Source: an uncultured Clostridia bacterium
Lineage (GTDB): Bacteria > Bacillota > Clostridia > Christensenellales > UBA1242
Length of the DNA stretch: 64,000 nucleotides
Assembly (NCBI GenBank): GCA_944381215.1
Contig: CALWKF010000002.1
Location: forward strand, 55,174 to 119,173
Direction of reading: 5' to 3'
Made by a program: the position numbers and the translations under genes
Shown: in pieces, positions 11,086-58,093 of the stretch
Numbering within the stretch: position 1 is the stretch's first letter
Layout: every line of letters begins with the position of its first letter
The notes under the pieces: model-generated
The model's database searches: none
What the model was told of the DNA's origin: nothing
The model's input: the letters and a program-made list of their open reading frames with translations, nothing else

Positions 11086-11090
11086 CCCAC

Positions 11091-11491
11091 CCTGTAGCAT
11101 GGTCTGTAAGCCGAGTTCTGTCGAGGACGGCCATCTATCTAGACACTTTGTCGCCAAAGTGTTCAAGCGATGTATAGCGGGAGCGAGCGGGCAACTCTTA
11201 TTTGCCCCCTTATCTTGCACAAGGTGGGGTTTACAGAGCGTACAAATATCACTATCCGTACCGGTGGTCTCTTAAACCACCTTTCCATCCTTACCGCTGT
11301 AACTTTTTGTGAAAAAATAGGAGGTATGATACTTAATATCAAAAAACACAAAAATAGACAAATTAGCGGCGGTTTATTTCTGTTGCACTTTCCTTGGAGT
11401 CGCCTCCACAAGATGTTATCTTGCACCTTGCCCTGCTGTGCTCGGACTTTCCTAATTTGCGGTTGCAAATTCGGCCGCCCGACCAGCTACA
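11091..11491 (-). ncRNA. rnpB: RNase P RNA (about 401 nt, probably type B)
   Basis: Minus strand carries AGGAAAGTCCGAGC (the conserved GAGGAAAGTCCGGGC block) and ACAGAACTCGGCTTACAG (the ACAGAA.CCGGCTTA block). P1 pairing joins TGTAGCTGGTC (5') to GACCATGCTACA (3'). The region is GC-rich, and its overlapping ORFs are spurious. Confidence 0.85.
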
Positions 11492-19090: not shown

Positions 19091-19360
19091 ACTGTGCTAG
19101 ACGGGGAGCTAGCGGTGCCCTGTACCTGCAAACCGCTTTAGCAGGGTCGAATGCCTTTCTCGGTGGTGCGTTAGGTTTGGCACGTGTTTAGTATTTTGTG
19201 ATGAACGTTAAGGTCTTGTGCAATACTGCCCTACGAACCGTGTCAGGTGCGGAAGCAAGCAGCACTAAGGAGTGTGCAGTATGTGCCATAAGGTCGCCTT
19301 GCGGGAGCATTTTACTAGATGACGACCAAGTCTTTCCCCAACAAAAAAGGTTGCACAGTA
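19091..19360 (+). ncRNA. ffs: Signal recognition particle RNA, long Bacillus type with Alu domain (about 270 nt)
   Basis: GTCAGGTGCGGAAGCAAGCAGCAC matches the domain IV motif GUCAGGUCCGGAAGGAAGCAGC. AGCGGTGCCCTGTACCTGCAAACCGCTTTAGCAGGGTCGAATGCC closely matches the B. subtilis scRNA Alu-domain sequence as I recall it. The 5' ACTGTGC pairs with the 3' GCACAGT. Confidence 0.82.
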
Positions 19361-23816: not shown

Positions 23817-25487
23817 TTATTCATCTAGCTCATTAATCTTTTGCATTAAAGTATTACCATCCCACAAAATTACATCGTTTGCTTTTGCCAACTCACGTGC
23901 AGCTTTTGTAAAAGAGCTGTTTGTGATAACCATACATTTTTGTGCTTTATAATATTTTTTGCCTGTTACAACTTCTTGAATAGCTTTATTGCCAACTGAA
24001 TTTTGAAAGAAATGCTTAACTTGAATAGCTATCTTCTCTCCAGCCTTTTCTGCTACTACGTCTACTCCTTGGTCACCTGATTTTTTTGTCTTATATGAAT
24101 TATATCCCATTTTCTTAAATAGATCTGCTATAAATTGTTCAAAATCAAATGGCGACATTAAATCAAGGTCTATTTTTGAGAATTTTCCATCCTCATCAGT
24201 TTCTGCCTCTAACTCATATAAATAATTTTTTCGTTCTTGCGCTTCGCGCAAATTTTCTAAAATAGTTGAGTTTTTTATAGTATCCACTTCATTTAAAACT
24301 ATTGTTTGATCATTTTTATTGTTATAATAACCATCATAATACATAACAATATCTTCATTTGCCATATTTATATTATACTTAAAGATTTCTTTTGCGTAGT
24401 AATATAAATCTTTATTTTCAATCAAATTTAACCGATCAATATAGTCTTTATAGAATTTTTCAGACAATAAAACATTTCTTTCTTGAAACATTAAATAGAA
24501 TAAAGCAAATTTTTCTACAAAAGTATCCAATATAAAATTGGATTCGGTCAATGATAAAACAAACTTATCAAATTCGGCTTGGGAAACATTTTCAGAAAAA
24601 TTTAAACTATTTAAATAACTATTATTAAAAAATAATTCATTAAAGTATTTTTCCCGAGCTTGACAAAGTTTTATAAGATATTGAATAATTAAAGAGTTTT
24701 CGTTAGTTTCTATATTGTCAAGCAATTTATCTGCACAAAAATTAATTTTTGAAGAGTATTCACTAGGAATATATAACAAAAAGTTAAAACGATCATATAA
24801 AAAGAAATCATTTCTTTTTAAAAAACTTTTTATGAAATTATGAATTCTTTTTTCATTTTTTATATTAGAATATGATTCAATGATGTCTAAAAAAAGTTTG
24901 GATATCTCATTAATTTCTTCTAATGTAAGTCCATCATTTTGAGTGCATACTGTAGATTTCGGTTCTGAAATTATATTACTGCTAGATACTGGTGTTCGTG
25001 ATATATTTGAGAAGTCATTAAAAAATAATTCATTGTACTCAGATTCATCAATTAAGATTCGGCGATTTCCGTTTGTTGAGTTAGGTACCGAAATAAACCC
25101 ATGTCGTTCCATTTGATCTATTATACGCGCTGCACGCGCATAACCCACTTGATAACGGCTTTGAATAGCCGAAATCGACCCAGTCCCCGTTTTGATAAAC
25201 TCAAGCAATGCCTTTGGTAAAATCGGGTCTAATTCTTCATCTCGCTCAACATCTTTACTTTCTATACCCCTTGAGCAAGATTTATAATTATTACTTTGCA
25301 TAAAGTTATCACTCCTCCCACTTGCTAATTTTGAAACATTTTGATTATAATTATTTAAATGATTATTTGTCCTATTTATATTTATATCAGAAAATAACTT
25401 TTTACATATATAATAAATTATATAAATAGGGAGAATAAAGATTAAAAAAACAAATAAAAAATCACCTGAACCCTTTTTCATAAACAC
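23817..25487 (-). CDS. Membrane-anchored protein with an FtsK-gamma winged-helix domain and a C-terminal Mrr-like restriction endonuclease domain
   Basis: N-terminal TM helix (FLFVFLIFILPIYIIYYI). FtsK gamma-like segment SISAIQSRYQVGYARAARIIDQMERHGFIS. C-terminal Mrr_cat-like FEQFIADLFKKMGY...GDQGVDVVAEKAGEKIAIQVKHF...KAIQEV. The roughly 270-aa middle region is AT-rich and unrecognised. Confidence 0.7.
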   Translation of the reverse strand: MFMKKGSGDFLFVFLIFILPIYIIYYICKKLFSDININRTNNHLNNYNQNVSKLASGRSDNFMQSNNYKSCSRGIESKDVERDEELDPILPKALLEFIKTGTGSISAIQSRYQVGYARAARIIDQMERHGFISVPNSTNGNRRILIDESEYNELFFNDFSNISRTPVSSSNIISEPKSTVCTQNDGLTLEEINEISKLFLDIIESYSNIKNEKRIHNFIKSFLKRNDFFLYDRFNFLLYIPSEYSSKINFCADKLLDNIETNENSLIIQYLIKLCQAREKYFNELFFNNSYLNSLNFSENVSQAEFDKFVLSLTESNFILDTFVEKFALFYLMFQERNVLLSEKFYKDYIDRLNLIENKDLYYYAKEIFKYNINMANEDIVMYYDGYYNNKNDQTIVLNEVDTIKNSTILENLREAQERKNYLYELEAETDEDGKFSKIDLDLMSPFDFEQFIADLFKKMGYNSYKTKKSGDQGVDVVAEKAGEKIAIQVKHFFQNSVGNKAIQEVVTGKKYYKAQKCMVITNSSFTKAARELAKANDVILWDGNTLMQKINELDE

Positions 25488-54025: not shown

Positions 54026-54442
54026 TTATCTAGACATAAAGTCCTCGATGGAAGTTTGGGAGACTTTGTCTTTTACTTGGTGCGTGATGCGGTAGTAATA
54101 ATCTTCGCAAGGCTTTACTAGGCTCTTTTGCTCTTGTGTGGGCACGTGCATTGCCTTTAAATACTGCCTATAATTATTGATATAATTTAGGCCGAATTTT
54201 TTAATTAAAAAAGCCTTGTGGACAAAGTCGTCCTCGTAGTCCTCGACAACTTGCTCCACGTGTGTTTCCTCGTCAGTTGCCTCACTTACGGCATAAAAGT
54301 CGAGCAAAACGCCGTCAACATGGCCCAATTTATCAGTCATTGGCTCGAAATGAATGTCGCTTGACACCGAATAACCTTCACCGCAAATTACAATGCCTGC
54401 GTACTCGTTCCAATCTTCTTTATTTAATTTTTCTACAAACAT
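54026..54442 (-). CDS. Hypothetical acidic protein
   Basis: 138-aa ORF with a plausible RBS. No motif recognised. Confidence 0.5.
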   Translation of the reverse strand: MFVEKLNKEDWNEYAGIVICGEGYSVSSDIHFEPMTDKLGHVDGVLLDFYAVSEATDEETHVEQVVEDYEDDFVHKAFLIKKFGLNYINNYRQYLKAMHVPTQEQKSLVKPCEDYYYRITHQVKDKVSQTSIEDFMSR

Positions 54443-54605: not shown

Positions 54606-55292
54606 ATGAAAATTAACGATTGCTATAAAGTAAATTCTTGTCCACACTCTGGACCTGCGCCCATCCCGCAAGAGGGCGAATTTACGCAAGTAAAAGACAT
54701 TACCGAGATTTGCGGGTTTAGTCATGGTTGTGGGAAATGCGCACCGCGTCAAGGTGTATGCAAACTCACCTTGAATGTCAAAAACGGCATAATAAAAGAG
54801 GCTTTAATTGAAACCGTTGGTTGTAGTGGTATGACGCACAGTGCGTGCATGGCGGGCGAAATTCTGGTGGGCCTAACTCTACTCGAAGCACTGAACACCG
54901 ACCTTGTTTGCGACGCGATAAACGACGCGATGAAGGACATTTTCCAGCAACTTGCCTACGGGCGCAGTCAAAGTGCCTTTTCAATTGGAGGCTTGTCGAT
55001 TGGCGCGGGGGTTGAGGAACTGGGCTCCACCCACCACAGCCGTGTTGGCACTGTATACAGTAACGACAAGGCGGGTGTTCGGTACTACAACACGACCGAG
55101 GGTTACACTACTCGCCTTGCCCTCGATGAAAATAACGAGATAATCGGTTATGAGTACGTAAACTTGCCGAGATTGCTAAAAAACATCCGCGCTGGCATGG
55201 ATGCAAAAGAGGCCCTAATAAAGTCTAGCGGGACTTATGGCAGATTTGACGAAGGCAAGGCTTATATCGACACAATGGAGGAAAACATATGA
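54606..55292 (+). CDS. NifU/IscU N-terminal-like Cys-rich protein (partner of the GGGtGRT protein)
   Basis: Cys pattern CGKC...ETVGCSGMTHSACMAGEILVG..LLEA resembles the IscU scaffold fold. Its ATGA overlap with the next gene suggests coupling. Confidence 0.55.
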   Translation: MKINDCYKVNSCPHSGPAPIPQEGEFTQVKDITEICGFSHGCGKCAPRQGVCKLTLNVKNGIIKEALIETVGCSGMTHSACMAGEILVGLTLLEALNTDLVCDAINDAMKDIFQQLAYGRSQSAFSIGGLSIGAGVEELGSTHHSRVGTVYSNDKAGVRYYNTTEGYTTRLALDENNEIIGYEYVNLPRLLKNIRAGMDAKEALIKSSGTYGRFDEGKAYIDTMEENI

Positions 55293-56290
55293 CAGAAAAG
55301 TATTTCACGGGTTACAGTGAGCGCGCCGACGGCATTCGCTCCATTCTCAAAAAATATGGCATTTCTTCCATTGAGGAGGCGTATTCCCTCGCCGAAGGTG
55401 TGCTAAACTGCGAAGATTTTGTTAAAAAAGTCCAGCCGATTGTATTTGATAACGCGGTTTGGGCGTTTCGAATCGGTGCTGCACTTGCGGTGAAAACTAA
55501 AACTACCGACCCAAAACAGATTGCTCTACTTTTAGGGGAAGCGTTGCAGGCATTTTGTATACCTGGCTCGGTCGCAGCGAGGCGTCAGGTAGGGCTTGGA
55601 CACGGGCATTTGGCGGCAACTTTGCTCGATGACCGCACAAAGTGCTTCTGCTTCATCGCGGGGCACGAGTCTTTTGCGGCGAGCGAAGGAGCGATTGCGC
55701 TGGCAACCAGTGTAAATCACGTGCGCTCTACCCCATTAAAAATTATTATTAATGGCTTGGGGAAAGACGCTGCGTACATTATTAGCCGTATTGGGGGATT
55801 CACATATGTGCAGACCGACTATGACTACAATCGCGACAAGTTGATTGTTAAGTCCGAGCGCAAATTTGGTTCGGGCGACCGCAGTAAAGTGCGCGTTTAC
55901 GGGGCTTTGAGCGTTAACGAAGGGGTTGCAATTTGTGATTATGAGCAAGTTGACATATCAATCACGGGTAATTCGACCAACCCGACGCGTTTTCAGCACC
56001 CAGTGGCGGGTATTTATAAAAAAATGCGCGTTAATCAAGGACTCCCCTACTTCTCGATTGCAAGCGGTGGCGGGACTGGTAGGACCTTGCACCCAGACAA
56101 TTTAGCAGCGGGCCCCGCAAGTTACGGACTCACCGACACTATGGGGCGTATGCACTGTGATGCGCAGTTTGCTGGTAGTAGTTCTGTCCCCGCCCATGTG
56201 AATATGATGGGATTTGTTGGAATGGGAAATAACCCGTTAATGGGGTGTACTGCTAGTTTAGCTGTGCGACTTAGTGAACTTATTAAGTAG
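55289..56290 (+). CDS. GGGtGRT family protein (uncharacterised)
   Basis: The eponymous motif SGGGTGRTLHP is encoded at about 56061-56090. The 333-aa length is typical of the family. Confidence 0.8.
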   Translation: MTEKYFTGYSERADGIRSILKKYGISSIEEAYSLAEGVLNCEDFVKKVQPIVFDNAVWAFRIGAALAVKTKTTDPKQIALLLGEALQAFCIPGSVAARRQVGLGHGHLAATLLDDRTKCFCFIAGHESFAASEGAIALATSVNHVRSTPLKIIINGLGKDAAYIISRIGGFTYVQTDYDYNRDKLIVKSERKFGSGDRSKVRVYGALSVNEGVAICDYEQVDISITGNSTNPTRFQHPVAGIYKKMRVNQGLPYFSIASGGGTGRTLHPDNLAAGPASYGLTDTMGRMHCDAQFAGSSSVPAHVNMMGFVGMGNNPLMGCTASLAVRLSELIK

Positions 56291-56773
56291 TTGACATTCC
56301 AACGCAGAACCGCACTTTTGTTTGTTTCGGTTTTGTTGAGTGCGAGAGTTTGACTATACCCTATTCAATCAGGGTAGTCGGCTGAGCAAAAGTGCATGTT
56401 TCCAAGTTGGAATGGGAAATAACCCGTTAATGGAGTGTACGGCGAGTCTTGCTGTAAAGTTGAGTGAGTTGATTAAGTAGACAATTCCAACGCAGAACCG
56501 CACTTTTGTTTGTTTTGATTTTGTTGAGTGCGAGAGTTTGACTATACCCTACTCAATTAGGGTAGTTGGCTGAGCAAAAGTGCATGCTTCCAAGTTGGAA
56601 TGGGAAATAACCCTCTTATGGAGTGTACGGCGAGTCTTGCCGTAAAGTTGAGTGAGTTGATTAAGTAGACAATTCCAACGCAGAACCGCACTTTTGTTTG
56701 TTTCGGTTTTGTTGAGTGCGAGAGTTTGACTATACCCTACTCAATTAGGGTAGTTGACTGAGCAAAAGTGCAT
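56216..56773 (+). repeat. Tandem array of three units (190, 188 and about 180 bp), each with a copy of the last 24 codons plus stop of the GGGtGRT gene and a structured spacer of about 113 nt
   Basis: Units begin with GTTGGAATGGGAAATAACCC at 56216, 56406 and 56594. The in-frame TAG stops are at 56288-56290, 56478-56480 and 56666-56668. Spacers run 56291-56405, 56481-56593 and 56669-56773. Confidence 0.95.
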
Positions 56774-56800
56774 AAAGGCGGAAAAATAATTAATATAAAA

Positions 56801-56831
56801 AGAGTGAAAATATATCTTTCACTCTTTTTTT
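56801..56831 (+). terminator. Rho-independent terminator closing the GGGtGRT operon and repeat array
   Basis: AGAGTGAAA-atatatc-TTTCACTCT followed by TTTTTTT. Confidence 0.7.
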
Positions 56832-56837
56832 GTTATA

Positions 56838-56870
56838 AAAAAAGCCTAGGAAAAACCTAGACTTTTTAAA
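56838..56870 (-). terminator. Rho-independent terminator of tuf
   Basis: Minus strand TCTAGG-ttttt-CCTAGGC followed by TTTTTTT. Confidence 0.6.
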
Positions 56871-56881
56871 GTGAGTATTAA

Positions 56882-58093
56882 TTAAGCCTCAATCTTGGTT
56901 ACAACACCACTACCTACAGTGTGGCCACCCTCACGAATAGCGAAGCGAAGACCCTCTTCGATAGCGATAGGAGTAATTAACTCAACTTCCATCTCGATAT
57001 TGTCGCCTGGCATAACCATTTCAACGCCACCAAGGAGTTTGATGGTACCAGTTACGTCGGTTGTACGGAAGTAGAACTGAGGACGGTAACCAGATACGAA
57101 TGGAGTAGAACGGCCACCCTCTTCTTTCTTTAGAATGTACACTTGTGCAGTGAACTTTGTGTGTGGAGTGATTGTCTTAGGAGCGGCAAGCACTTGACCA
57201 CGTTGGATGTCCTTACGCTCGATACCACGGAGCAAGCAACCAATGTTGTCACCAGCTTCTGCTTGGTCAAGCAACTTCTTGAACATCTCAACACCAGTAA
57301 TAACGGTTGTCTTTGTAGGACCCATACCAACGATTTCTACGGTGTCGCCTACTTTTACAGTACCACGCTCTACACGACCAGTAGCAACGGTACCACGGCC
57401 AGTAATTGTGAATACGTCCTCAACTGGCATAAGGAATGGCTTGTCGTTGTCACGAACTGGGTCTTTGAAGTAGCTGTCGCAAGCGTCCATAAGCTCGAAA
57501 ATGCACTTGCACTCCTCGCCGTCAACATTACCTGCAATAGCAGCATCGAGAGCACCCTTTGCACTACCACAAATAATTGGAGTTTCATCGCCTGGGAAGC
57601 CGTACTCGTTTAACAAGTCACGAATTTCCATTTCAACGAGCTCAATAAGTTCTGCACGGTCAGCTGGTGGAAGCAAGTCAACCTTGTTGACGAAAACAAT
57701 AATTGCAGGAACACCTACCTGACGAGCAAGTAGAATGTGCTCACGAGTTTGAGGCATAACACCAGCGTTTGCAGCAACTACCAAAATCGCGCCGTCCATC
57801 TGAGCAGCACCAGTAATCATGTTCTTTACATAGTCAGCGTGGCCTGGGCAGTCTACGTGTGCGTAGTGACGCTTTGCGGTTTCGTATTCTACGTGAGTAG
57901 AGTTAATTGTAATACCACGAGCTCTTTCTTCTGGGGTGTTGTCGATAGCTGCGTAGTCACGCGCTTCAGCCAAACCCTTCTTTGCTAATACTGTAGTAAT
58001 AGCAGCGGTCAAAGTTGTTTTACCGTGGTCAACGTGACCAATTGTACCCAAGTTAAAGTGGGGTTTCTTTCTTTCAAATTTTGCTTTTGCCAT
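56882..58093 (-). CDS. tuf: Elongation factor Tu
   Basis: [18 protein letters not shown] and NKVD motifs, with full-length similarity to EF-Tu. Confidence 0.98.

Follow-up and report, generated by a model that had tools for sequence, protein, structure and literature searches.

Tandem copies of a GGGtGRT gene tail and their structured spacers: candidate coupled micro-ORFs in a Christensenellales operon

Translational coupling by unmasking or by termination–reinitiation is a well-known principle, with the cistrons of ribosomal-protein operons and the RNA phage MS2 as examples. Other gene arrangements place copies of a C-terminus behind their parent gene: the cdiA-CT and rhs orphans are C-terminal cassettes located downstream of polymorphic toxin genes. 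MicroProteins, small proteins known chiefly from plants and animals, imitate a single domain of a larger protein and modulate the complexes in which it takes part. The array presented here, situated behind a GGGtGRT-family gene, has features of all three. Like coupled cistrons, it has downstream starts that lack a Shine–Dalgarno sequence and are paired with a segment which the upstream-terminating ribosome would cover, and it has a helix at whose base stop and restart codon come to lie side by side. Unlike them, its cistrons are serial 17–27-codon copies of the upstream gene's own tail, and the starts lie 115–120 nt from the stop, across a structured domain; we infer coupling from anatomy only. 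With the toxin orphans it shares an arrangement of 3′ fragments behind a full-length gene, a short common 5′ segment and reshuffling by homologous recombination. The orphans, however, carry diverse toxic tips together with immunity genes, whereas the cassettes of the array encode essentially the same 22-residue helix, their parent is a cytoplasmic Fe–S-associated protein, and a conserved hairpin follows each of them. As in microProteins, a short ORF derives from a single structural element of the larger protein and is apparently under purifying selection, but the ORFs of the array are bacterial and stand in tandem in the 3′ region of the parent gene, and their products are putative.

The locus was analysed in a window of 64,000 nucleotides (the whole stretch of DNA studied) from an uncultured Clostridia bacterium. 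The last 22–24 codons of the GGGtGRT gene, which encode a model-predicted C-terminal α-helix, are duplicated in tandem, and a structured spacer follows each copy (Table 1). The GGGtGRT gene is preceded by the Shine–Dalgarno sequence GGAGGA, and its start is overlapped by the final 4 nt of a NifU/IscU-like gene, which therefore probably heads the operon; related loci carry this pair of genes too. Gut and rumen metaproteomic studies have reported GGGtGRT proteins repeatedly, which makes high expression of the gene likely. In Bacteroides thetaiotaomicron the GGGtGRT/NifU pair is iron-responsive, being about 11–13-fold down in the iron-dependent stimulon (PMC10434189). The AlphaFold (AF2) model of the GGGtGRT protein, with a mean pLDDT of 82.5 and values above 90 in the tail helix, predicts a single long C-terminal helix at residues 314–332. 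A Foldseek search of this model against the PDB gave no significant match, and hence no functional clue. In a terminator scan, the bidirectional terminator was the first good one on the + strand past the GGGtGRT stop codon and the only strong one. All three units of the array lie upstream of this terminator, a position in the sequence which suggests that the array is part of the operon transcript. The Pfam domains of the convergent EF-Tu gene were recorded on the homologous gene of the related locus L217.

Table 1. The GGGtGRT operon, its tail-copy array and neighbouring features, in positions of the window.
Feature	Position	Strand	Remarks
NifU/IscU-like partner gene, 228 aa	54606–55292	+	weak NifU_N (Pfam) and NifU/IscU (NCBIfam) matches
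GGGtGRT-family gene, 333 aa	55289–56290	+	PF14057, E 3.6e-160
Cassette 1, the gene's own final 24 codons and TAG, encoding VGMGNNPLMGCTASLAVRLSELIK and stop	56216–56290	+	direct-repeat family D2, alignment A1; opens with arm GTTGGAATG
Spacer 1	56291–56405	+	post-stop arm CATTCCAAC at 56295–56303; AACC, then inner-stem 5′ arm GCACTTTTG at 56312–56320 and 3′ arm CAAAAGTGC at 56387–56395; variable 66-nt interior with hairpin at 56357–56376; out-of-frame 8-codon ORF 56396–56422, its AUG adjoining the inner stem
Cassette 2, with micro-ORF 56412–56480 encoding MGNNPLMECTASLAVKLSELIK and stop	56406–56480	+	in-frame ATGs at 56412 and 56430
Spacer 2	56481–56593	+	outer arm 56484–56491; inner-stem arms 56500–56508 and 56575–56583
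Cassette 3, with micro-ORF 56600–56668, peptide as in cassette 2	56594–56668	+	
Spacer 3, truncated	56669–56773	+	outer arm 56672–56679; inner-stem arms 56688–56696 and 56763–56771
Box ATTCCAAC	starts 56296, 56484, 56672		
Box GTTGGAAT	starts 56216, 56406, 56594		
Box GCACTTTTG	starts 56312, 56500, 56688		
Box CAAAAGTGC	starts 56387, 56575, 56763		66 nt between the GCACTTTTG and CAAAAGTGC arms
Bidirectional intrinsic terminator	56797–56829	both	13–14 bp stem, T-run on each strand
EF-Tu gene, convergent, sharing the terminator 56797–56829 with the array side	56882–58093	−	

Tandem Repeats Finder describes the array as 3.0 copies of a 188-nt period between 56216 and 56773, in which each of the three units joins the final 24 codons of the GGGtGRT gene, stop included, to a spacer of about 105–115 nt. 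An earlier note on this DNA had called the coding segments cassettes; all of them are copies of the upstream gene's end. Cassette 2 departs from cassette 1 at 14 nucleotides and just 2 amino acids, and the 4 nucleotide differences between cassettes 3 and 2 are all synonymous. A shorter form of the cassette peptide reads MECTASLAVKLSELIK. Repeat and box mapping recovered the nested inverted repeats where the earlier note had placed them, together with its gaps of 8 and 10 nt between boxes. The three spacers, which it took as equal, do all carry the boxes, but the third lacks the 3′ linker and 3′ outer arm and terminates in ...CAAAAGTGCAT at 56773. The outer arm, given as 8 bp, spans 8 nt in spacers 2 and 3, whereas the stem of unit 1 has 9 bp (GTTGGAATG/CATTCCAAC), and the sequence TTCCAAgTTGGAA, described as a perfect 13-bp palindrome, is palindromic but made of two 6-nt arms flanking a central base. 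The inner stem of the spacers can be written as GCACUUUUG/CAAAAGUGC, and the TACCCT(A)/(T)AGGGTA hairpin within it is shorter in spacer 1 (6 bp) than in the other two (7 bp). A 25-mer spanning the 5′ boxes was counted three times in the window and never in 100 shuffles; throughout the 64 kb the element is present at this one locus only, in its three array copies. Spacers of the window are about 96% identical, versus 81% for cassettes 1 and 2, a mismatch that means either that the spacers were homogenised or that a tail was replaced by recombination.

An assembly artefact is excluded for the array, as independent contigs from a chicken-gut metagenome run matched every junction with 0 mismatches, and the segments common to the units had 2–3× depth. 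A scaffold with an identical protein has at least four spacer starts and an N gap inside the array, which leaves the exact copy number of the array uncertain. In a related strain (run X4, with no sequence on inner units) the gene is followed by a spacer start, and its expressed tail combines the E variant with synonymous states like those of cassette 2. One tail sequence type can occupy the gene position in some genomes and a downstream position in others. The direct repeats undergo unequal homologous recombination and gene conversion, through which the units vary in number and order. Cassette gain and loss between strains does occur, as the X4 strain and the scaffold with at least four spacers illustrate; unequal homologous exchange between the 188-nt direct repeats suffices for it, and no site-specific recombinase is needed.

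That the spacers (AACCGCAC...) are attC-like or other site-specific sites, at which a tyrosine or serine recombinase captures and excises cassettes, is an explanation that we regard as extremely improbable. Like an integron attC site, each spacer is an imperfect palindrome whose outer and inner boxes are nested around a variable middle, it stands between short "cassettes" with a unit boundary near GTT, and copy number differs between strains. The resemblance ends at the attC core sequences, extrahelical bases, spacing, cassette diversity and associated integrase, all of which are absent. The window's TTCCAAC/GTTGGAA pair misses the attC core at the R and Y positions, and GTTGGAA, proposed as the core, mismatches GTTRRRY at position 7. 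In relatives, unrelated sequences that nevertheless complement each other take the place of the outer box and do not fit RYYYAAC/GTTRRRY (CCTACAAAG/CTTTGTAGG in L001, ACCTACAA/TTGTAGGT in L008, GCTGAC/GTCGGC in L012 and UAAAGCCCA/UGGGCUUUA in a second clade), and some arrays have no outer box at all; the "core" thus behaves as an ordinary covarying helix rather than as a conserved sequence for recombination. Unlike the L″/L′ of attC, the boxes pair perfectly (8–9 bp and 9 bp), with no extrahelical bases, and the gaps of 8 and 10 nt, where attC would have an unpaired central spacer of about 5–6 nt, are partly paired in the minimum-free-energy fold. Every cassette is the same 75-nt gene fragment rather than an independent ORF, the element is confined to one locus, and a Pfam scan of 33 window ORFs revealed no Phage_integrase, resolvase or other recombinase domain, in agreement with the earlier note's remark that the window encodes no recombinase. 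REP/BIME elements likewise comprise tandem hairpin-forming repeats between convergent genes, upstream of a terminator. They are dispersed, with many copies per genome, and lack coding segments, whereas the array element is found only behind the GGGtGRT gene, in the window as in other genomes; with only the three array copies in 64 kb, a REP/BIME or other dispersed palindrome was rejected.

The spacers are structured. Spacer 1 was folded on both strands, as the earlier note proposed (−43.8 kcal/mol, z −3.2, on the + strand; −38.9 kcal/mol, z −3.5, on the − strand). In the fold of the whole array (−201 kcal/mol, z −6.2) every post-stop arm is paired with the start of the next cassette. The inverted repeats (I6, I21–I25) also allow pairing with the start of the preceding one, which bears out the suggestion of mutually exclusive folds. 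The hairpin core, AACCGCACUUUU...AAAAGUGYAU, is invariant across species and is the strongest nucleotide-level conservation of the locus: AACCGCACTTTT and AAAAGTG[CT]AT do not vary among 13 spacers of 8 species whose interiors cannot be aligned. The outer stem covaries at the third base of Val310 (T-A, A-T, C-G and G.U), with covariation in both clades studied, and it is also present in L014, which is without an array; some downstream cassettes (L221) have no outer stem upstream. The inner stem begins 17–21 nt after the stop, and in both clades the hairpin is directly adjoined by an AUG at its 3′ base. As AUG... rather than a U-run comes next, the inner hairpin was rejected as an intrinsic terminator. 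A search of 56150–56900 against Rfam 15, in gathering and E-value modes, yielded no family at gathering score and no attC-type match. The best hit, HrrF, reached 31 bits versus the 77 required, most likely because of a AAGTGCGGT-like motif. The alternative idea of the earlier note, a structured 3′-UTR RNA motif repeated three times, is therefore supported in part: the element lies between stop and terminator, its outer stem covaries and its inner core is invariant.

The module has a patchy distribution among relatives. In clade 1 it occurs in 9 of 20 species-level genomes, and the invariant hairpin motif stands within 60 nt past the stop in 8 of the 9 with copies and in none of the 11 without; the exception, L007, bears a variant stem in its first spacer. 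Clade 2, at about 64% protein identity, has the module too, with a post-stop AAGYCC/AAGCAC motif 5′ of the hairpin in 9 of 10 genomes with copies and 2 of 19 without. Hairpin element and tail copies co-occur almost perfectly in both clades. Tail copies were found in none of about 50 more distant loci. The module is dispensable, given its absence from L014, whose protein is 97% identical, and from about half of the relatives; array-less relatives have an ordinary terminator directly after the stop. A scan of a metagenome collection added one locus only, a duplicate of L010, and among the matches listed by a pattern scan of a genome collection there were only known GGGtGRT loci and Pasteurellaceae uptake-signal noise. 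The array represents an extension at the 3′ end of the GGGtGRT operon that is specific to this lineage.

The earlier note on the array made no use of the peptide conservation of the repeated coding segment. Among 23 tail/copy pairs, 259 nucleotide differences in 163 codons are accompanied by 63 amino-acid differences versus 158 expected, a codon test that is biased towards conservation because peptide similarity served to detect the copies. Ser AGT↔TCA, Arg AGA↔CGC and Leu TTG↔CTT are among the changes. At L175 the gene tail and two downstream copies differ pairwise by 6–10 nt or more, with at most one amino-acid change over 15 codons. Diverged intact copies show 6–10 differences per 45 nt to the nearest of 29 sampled gene tails, and those of the window 11 per 48, so that no recent donor is visible. 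A "private mutation" test on the reference tails is biased, as their synonymous sites are saturated and only non-synonymous states can look private. An in-frame ATG and a stop are kept in every non-degenerate copy, even where the N-terminus is remodelled (MENCTAS... in L001, MANTLTCTAS... in L221). Relative to the gene tail, cassettes carry 1–2 conservative replacements, in the window G319E and R327K. Decay is also seen: the L012 copy is degenerate (stop or frameshift), copy 2 of L221 has a 1-nt deletion, terminal copies are decayed in L001, L221, L175 and L192, L015 has lost its stop, and L218 and L225 keep the hairpin plus just the last ~30 nt of coding sequence. Copies at L010, L012, L204 and L215 barely differ from their own gene tail, a sign of recent conversion or duplication. 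No Shine–Dalgarno sequence was found at the cassette ATGs, where the median anti-SD duplex energy is −2.2 kcal/mol versus −7.7 kcal/mol for annotated genes. Contigs of a chicken-gut metatranscriptome were too thin to inform on expression, covering the GGGtGRT gene about 2× and leaving the array uncovered, and a search for RNA runs for the clade-2 locus L175 found none. In-frame starts and stops together with a synonymous excess are what a translated small ORF under purifying selection would display, and a recombination-based explanation could still produce them. As the amino-acid sequence is kept while the DNA drifts, the copies probably encode small peptides that mimic the C-terminal helix.

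The explanation that we favour, and to which we give about an even chance, is that the array consists of translationally coupled micro-ORFs encoding the C-terminal helix and is turned over by unequal recombination. The downstream copies would be translated as micro-ORFs of 17–27 residues, and, with no Shine–Dalgarno sequence, they would have to rely on being coupled to ribosomes that terminate at the stop before them. The post-stop arm, 5–13 nt past the stop, would pair with the segment bearing the next AUG (GUUGGAAUG), and the invariant inner hairpin would draw the stop and the next start together. By covering and melting the post-stop arm, a terminating ribosome would expose the next AUG for re-initiation; in clade 2, a single hairpin abutting the AUG could do the equivalent job. 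The products would be free "tail-helix" peptides in amounts proportional to GGGtGRT translation, which may modulate the assembly or partner binding of the GGGtGRT/NifU-like pair. The more specific proposal is put forward tentatively, its chances lying somewhat below even: in some Christensenellales, a conserved RNA module (invariant hairpin and covarying masking stem) would hand GGGtGRT-terminating ribosomes across a structured spacer to starts without a Shine–Dalgarno sequence. The resulting free C-terminal helices would act as tail-mimic microproteins and tune how the abundant, iron-responsive GGGtGRT/NifU-like pair assembles or how active it is.

The main rival, which is possible though rather unlikely in our estimation, regards the copies as untranslated by-products. 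The hairpin-rich 3′ end would promote slippage or unequal exchange that duplicates "gene tail + hairpin", leaving copies as fossils of former or foreign functional tails, and differences would be synonymous only because the tail or the whole unit was replaced through homologous recombination with diverged alleles, not because of selection. Such by-products would agree with a patchy, dispensable module whose copies are often truncated or frameshifted, the terminal ones most decayed, and in several cases nearly identical to their own tail, with tail sequence types common to gene and downstream positions in different genomes, with the disagreement between spacer and cassette identity in the window, and with copies that have no Shine–Dalgarno sequence. 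They do not readily account for diverged intact copies without a close donor among the 20 + 29 sampled gene tails, nor for L175, where tail and copies are mutually diverged at synonymous positions and several separate imports would be needed. The retention of ATG and stop through in-frame remodelling of the N-terminus also stands against them, and the invariance of the hairpin core amid heavily diverged synonymous sites, and only where copies exist, argues for a selected module.

Selection could, on the other hand, act on the RNA only. Hairpin and tail-enclosing outer stem would then be a 3′-UTR element (exonuclease barrier, processing site or protein-binding site) whose dosage is raised by tandem repeats, with the coding segment hitch-hiking. 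The conservation of the hairpin core, the survival of the hairpin with a mere coding remnant at L225 and L218, an outer stem that covaries in both clades and exists without an array, and the likely high expression of the GGGtGRT gene are in keeping with this improbable alternative. It leaves unexplained the amino-acid conservation at 20–30% nucleotide divergence and the retained ATGs and stops; moreover, array-less relatives manage with their ordinary terminator, and no Rfam family matches. Very unlikely indeed is a silent-cassette archive, in which the copies donate variants of the C-terminal helix to the expressed gene by segmental gene conversion or unit deletion, in the manner of pilS or orphan toxin-tip cassettes. 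Cassettes with one or two conservative replacements, the X4 tail with its cassette-2-like states, and tail sequence types that shift position between genomes would suit an archive, but little variation is stored, often none at all, which does not amount to diversification, and an archive needs neither its own ATG and stop nor a hairpin adjoining the AUG.

Several other known classes were considered and rejected. The array is not the work of a diversity-generating retroelement, since the differences are not adenine-specific (at the 14 sites that distinguish cassettes 1 and 2, the cassette 2 bases are G six times, A four times, T three times and C once) and none of the scanned ORFs was recognised as a reverse transcriptase. 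A RiPP precursor array does not fit either, as no maturase was recognised among the neighbours (NifU-like gene, tyrS, tuf/fusA) and the peptides are conserved, not hypervariable. Stop-codon read-through or translational hopping is incompatible with the frame of the copies relative to the preceding stop, which is inconsistent across loci (0, +1, +2), and for hopping via an AAG take-off/landing pair the landing, read from the sequence, is out of frame. An insertion element carrying a replacement tail was discarded because spacers and cassettes are 96% versus 81% identical and the window array ends in a spacer. Read on the opposite strand, ACCGCACTT gives the Haemophilus uptake signal sequence, a coincidence, as the motif is unenriched in the window.

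The module appears to be selected to supply an extra C-terminal helix, which would make this helix a functionally separable element of the uncharacterised GGGtGRT family and gives a concrete experimental handle on that family. If the micro-ORFs are translated, they would be a clear bacterial example of microproteins mimicking part of their parent protein, and also of serial re-initiation across a structured spacer without Shine–Dalgarno sequences. If they are untranslated, the locus would be a useful case of gene-tail repeat recombination that mimics purifying selection, and of nested palindromes that mimic attC in integron scans. As a side observation, several over-long GGGtGRT proteins with similar internal duplications are present in databases and are probably chimeric assemblies.

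The array downstream of the GGGtGRT-family gene comprises 3.0 copies of a 188-nt period (Tandem Repeats Finder), in which every cassette repeats the final 24 codons and the stop codon of that gene. It is located between the GGGtGRT stop codon and the only strong plus-strand terminator, which is common to the convergent EF-Tu gene, and a scan of the window sequence found no promoter-like site within it. Re-reading of the window bore out the nested inverted repeats that the earlier note had placed in the spacers, with 66 nt between GCACTTTTG and CAAAAGTGC in every unit, as well as the inner TACCCT(A) hairpin; spacer 3 is truncated, its last sequence being CAAAAGTGCAT. A 25-mer across the 5′ boxes occurs three times in the window and never in shuffles. 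On either strand the fold of spacer 1 is more stable than those of its shuffles (z −3.2 and −3.5). For the entire array the fold energy is −201 kcal/mol (z −6.2), and there the post-stop arm of each unit pairs with the beginning of the following cassette. The alternative named in the earlier note, pairing with the beginning of the preceding cassette, is likewise available given the inverted repeats. Independent contigs from a chicken-gut metagenome run match all junctions with 0 mismatches, shared segments having 2–3x depth, so the array is real. Its precise copy number is not certain, since at least four spacer starts, and a gap inside the array, are found on a scaffold that encodes the identical protein.

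Features of the GGGtGRT locus and of the wider window
Feature	Position	Strand	Remark
RNase P RNA	11090-11490	-	bacterial, class A, 254 bits
Large SRP RNA	19092-19358	+	168 bits
556-aa protein gene	23817-25487	-	FtsK-gamma and Mrr-type restriction endonuclease domains
138-aa ORF	54026-54442	-	divergent, upstream of operon; no Pfam or NCBIfam match
GGGtGRT-family protein gene	55289-56290	+	PF14057, E 3.6e-160
GGGtGRT residues 261-297	56069-56179		GGGTGRT motif and ~30 following residues
Tandem array	56216-56773
GTTGGAAT box	56216, 56406, 56594
ATTCCAAC box	56296, 56484, 56672
ACCGCACTT	56309-56317		also in homologous spacers
Out-of-frame 8-codon ORFs	56396-56422, 56584-56610		MFPSWNGK* / MLPSWNGK*
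Strong terminator	56797-56829	+	the only one
Insertion site in run X4 strain	56837-56843		35 nt, CCGCGGGACTATCCCGTGG TTTTTTT...

The resemblance of the spacers to integron attC recombination sites, raised in the earlier note, did not survive comparison. This reading is rejected because the supposed core lacks sequence conservation and its two sides covary in the manner of a helix, extrahelical bases are absent, the cassettes are all identical gene fragments, the element is found only at the GGGtGRT locus within the 64-kb window, and no recombinase was found among the 33 window ORFs scanned.

The host lineage consists of uncultured Christensenellales-like Clostridia from animal guts. Among the 20 species-level genomes of clade 1 (protein identity ≥77%), nine carry one to three downstream tail copies each. 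AACCGCACTT lies at most 60 nt from the stop codon in eight of these nine, the exception (L007) having a variant stem in its first spacer, and in none of the 11 genomes without copies, where an ordinary terminator directly follows the stop. The same arrangement, with short spacers of ~45–135 nt, is found in clade 2 (~64% identity; tail ...MGNNPMVGATVSLAVAVSLAKK), where each spacer holds one hairpin with a covarying stem (CAUAUGUCC/GGACAUAUG, AAGGGUU/AACCCU, AAGGUUU/AAACCUU). Copies occur in 10 of 29 clade-2 genomes, and a post-stop AAGYCC/AAGCAC motif accompanies them in 9 of these 10, compared with 2 of the 19 without copies. No tail copies were found among ~50 more distant GGGtGRT loci. The hairpin element and the tail copies thus make up a single module that is limited to two related lineages. 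Two copy-free clade-2 loci, L226 and L240, still have AAGCCC after the stop together with one half of the hairpin, and look like relics of lost arrays. Locus L013 (3931-4150) is labelled Alistipes finegoldii and is probably mis-binned, since its protein is 85% identical to the Clostridia protein of the window; masked Ns run exactly over its gene tail and downstream region.

In an alignment of 13 clade-1 spacers from eight species, AACCGCACUUUU and AAAAGUG[CU]AU are invariant, the sole change being G-C to G.U. At this depth of divergence the GGGtGRT gene is only 82–84% identical in nucleotides, which indicates a sequence-specific constraint beyond the mere requirement for a helix. The interior (4–84 nt) cannot be aligned and is a bare tetraloop in L007. 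The outer stem joins codons F309–M312 to positions +5 to +13 downstream of the stop and shows covariation: at the third position of the Val310 codon the base pair is T-A in the window, L014 and L015, A-T in L001, L008, L221 and L010, C-G in L012 and G.U in L218. Its clade-2 equivalent, UGGGCUUUA/UAAAGCCCA, has the stop codon inside the helix, with UUC<->G covariation in L175. The distance from stop to inner stem is a constant 17–21 nt, and in both clades an AUG adjoins the 3′ base of the hairpin. No Rfam family was matched. Read on the opposite strand, the invariant ACCGCACTT gives AAGTGCGGT, the core of the Haemophilus DNA uptake signal; owing to this likeness, Pasteurellaceae matches swamped a genome-wide pattern scan and a sub-threshold Rfam match to HrrF appeared. 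This motif is not enriched within the window.

The copies bear a coding signal. Across 23 pairs of gene tail and downstream copy, 259 nucleotide differences fall in 163 codons and yield 63 amino-acid differences, where random substitution would be expected to give 158. Within the final 16 codons, 14–15 nucleotides but only two residues (G319E, R327K) separate the window copies from the gene tail, and all four sites separating copies 2 and 3 are synonymous. Some synonymous changes involve more than one nucleotide of a codon (Ser AGT<->TCA, Arg AGA<->CGC, Leu TTG<->CTT). L175 has two downstream copies which, like its gene tail, have each diverged from the others with at most one amino-acid change. 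An in-frame ATG and stop are kept in every non-degenerate copy (ORFs of 17–27 residues), even with the N-terminal part remodelled in frame (MENCTAS..., MANTLTCTAS...). In the AlphaFold model (mean pLDDT 82.5), residues 314–332 are confidently predicted as a single long C-terminal helix, and each cassette therefore encodes MGNNP plus this helix.

We give even chances to the explanation that tail-helix micro-ORFs are expressed from the module through translational coupling. Transcription would run through the array, and a ribosome terminating at the upstream stop would cover and melt the post-stop arm and so release the arm with the AUG, which would be kept nearby by the compact invariant hairpin; in clade 2 the single AUG-abutting hairpin would do the equivalent job. 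The anatomy, the conservation and the synonymous bias are observed, while transcription across the array, the coupling, and the existence and role of the peptides are inferred. The main alternative, which we consider rather doubtful, is that the copies are untranslated fossils from a recombination-prone, hairpin-rich 3′ end, their synonymous pattern having arisen via allelic replacement. Translation is argued against by the cassette ATGs, which have no Shine-Dalgarno (median −2.2 vs −7.7 kcal/mol for annotated genes), by the dispensability of the module, and by several copies that are decayed or reduced to the last ~30 nt of coding sequence; decay is strongest at the distal array end. The array also lies outside the coverage of the available metatranscriptome contigs. 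As for replacement, diverged intact copies are 6–10 of 45 nt or 11 of 48 away from the nearest sampled gene tail (29 and 20 tails), and therefore no recent donor is evident.

It is unlikely that the repeated hairpin acts purely at the RNA level, and a silent-cassette archive is very improbable. Each of the out-of-frame 8-codon ORFs begins at the AUG immediately 3′ of the inner hairpin, overlaps the cassette AUG and ends 10 nt beyond it; the corresponding AUG of L008 and L010 shares the frame of the cassette, giving 26-residue ORFs.

Array copy number varies among closely related strains, and some copies hardly differ from the tail of their own gene, a sign of recent conversion. A tail sequence type that is expressed as the gene's end in some genomes can be a downstream copy elsewhere. 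In the window, spacers are 96% identical whereas cassettes 1 and 2 share only 81%, implying spacer homogenisation or tail replacement by recombination. All of this is consistent with gene conversion and unequal homologous exchange between direct repeats. A related strain (run X4) has a spacer start after the gene, with no sequence aligned to inner units, and its insertion makes an additional hairpin resembling a terminator, placed between tuf and the GGGtGRT operon. Database GGGtGRT proteins of 384–460 aa with internal duplicated segments (P0016, P0020, P0026-P0029, P0037) are probably chimeric metagenome assemblies of an abundant, strain-variable gene.

A full-text search on the family name gave only omics listings and no prior description of the module. 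Its ingredients, namely tandem 3′ gene-fragment arrays, translational coupling and domain-mimic microproteins, are known; we have not seen their combination reported. The GGGtGRT family is uncharacterised and turns up repeatedly in metaproteomic studies of gut and rumen; in Bacteroides the GGGtGRT/NifU pair is among the genes listed as iron-responsive (PMC10434189). Here, a NifU/IscU-like partner gene lies directly upstream, overlapping the GGGtGRT gene start by 4 nt. Sequence and structure searches of the fold against the PDB gave no significant match. In the AlphaFold model, residues 261–297 alone make up a long stretch of low confidence (pLDDT < 50); they are almost invariant in sequence and may form a flexible active-site or partner-binding loop. 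A 138-residue gene with the position and orientation of the divergent ORF is called in L217, and comparable minus-strand genes upstream of the operon in L219, L221 and L222. Elsewhere in the window, the RNase P and SRP RNAs both fit a core chromosomal region, and the FtsK-gamma/Mrr protein gene is located in the part of lowest GC (~0.30).
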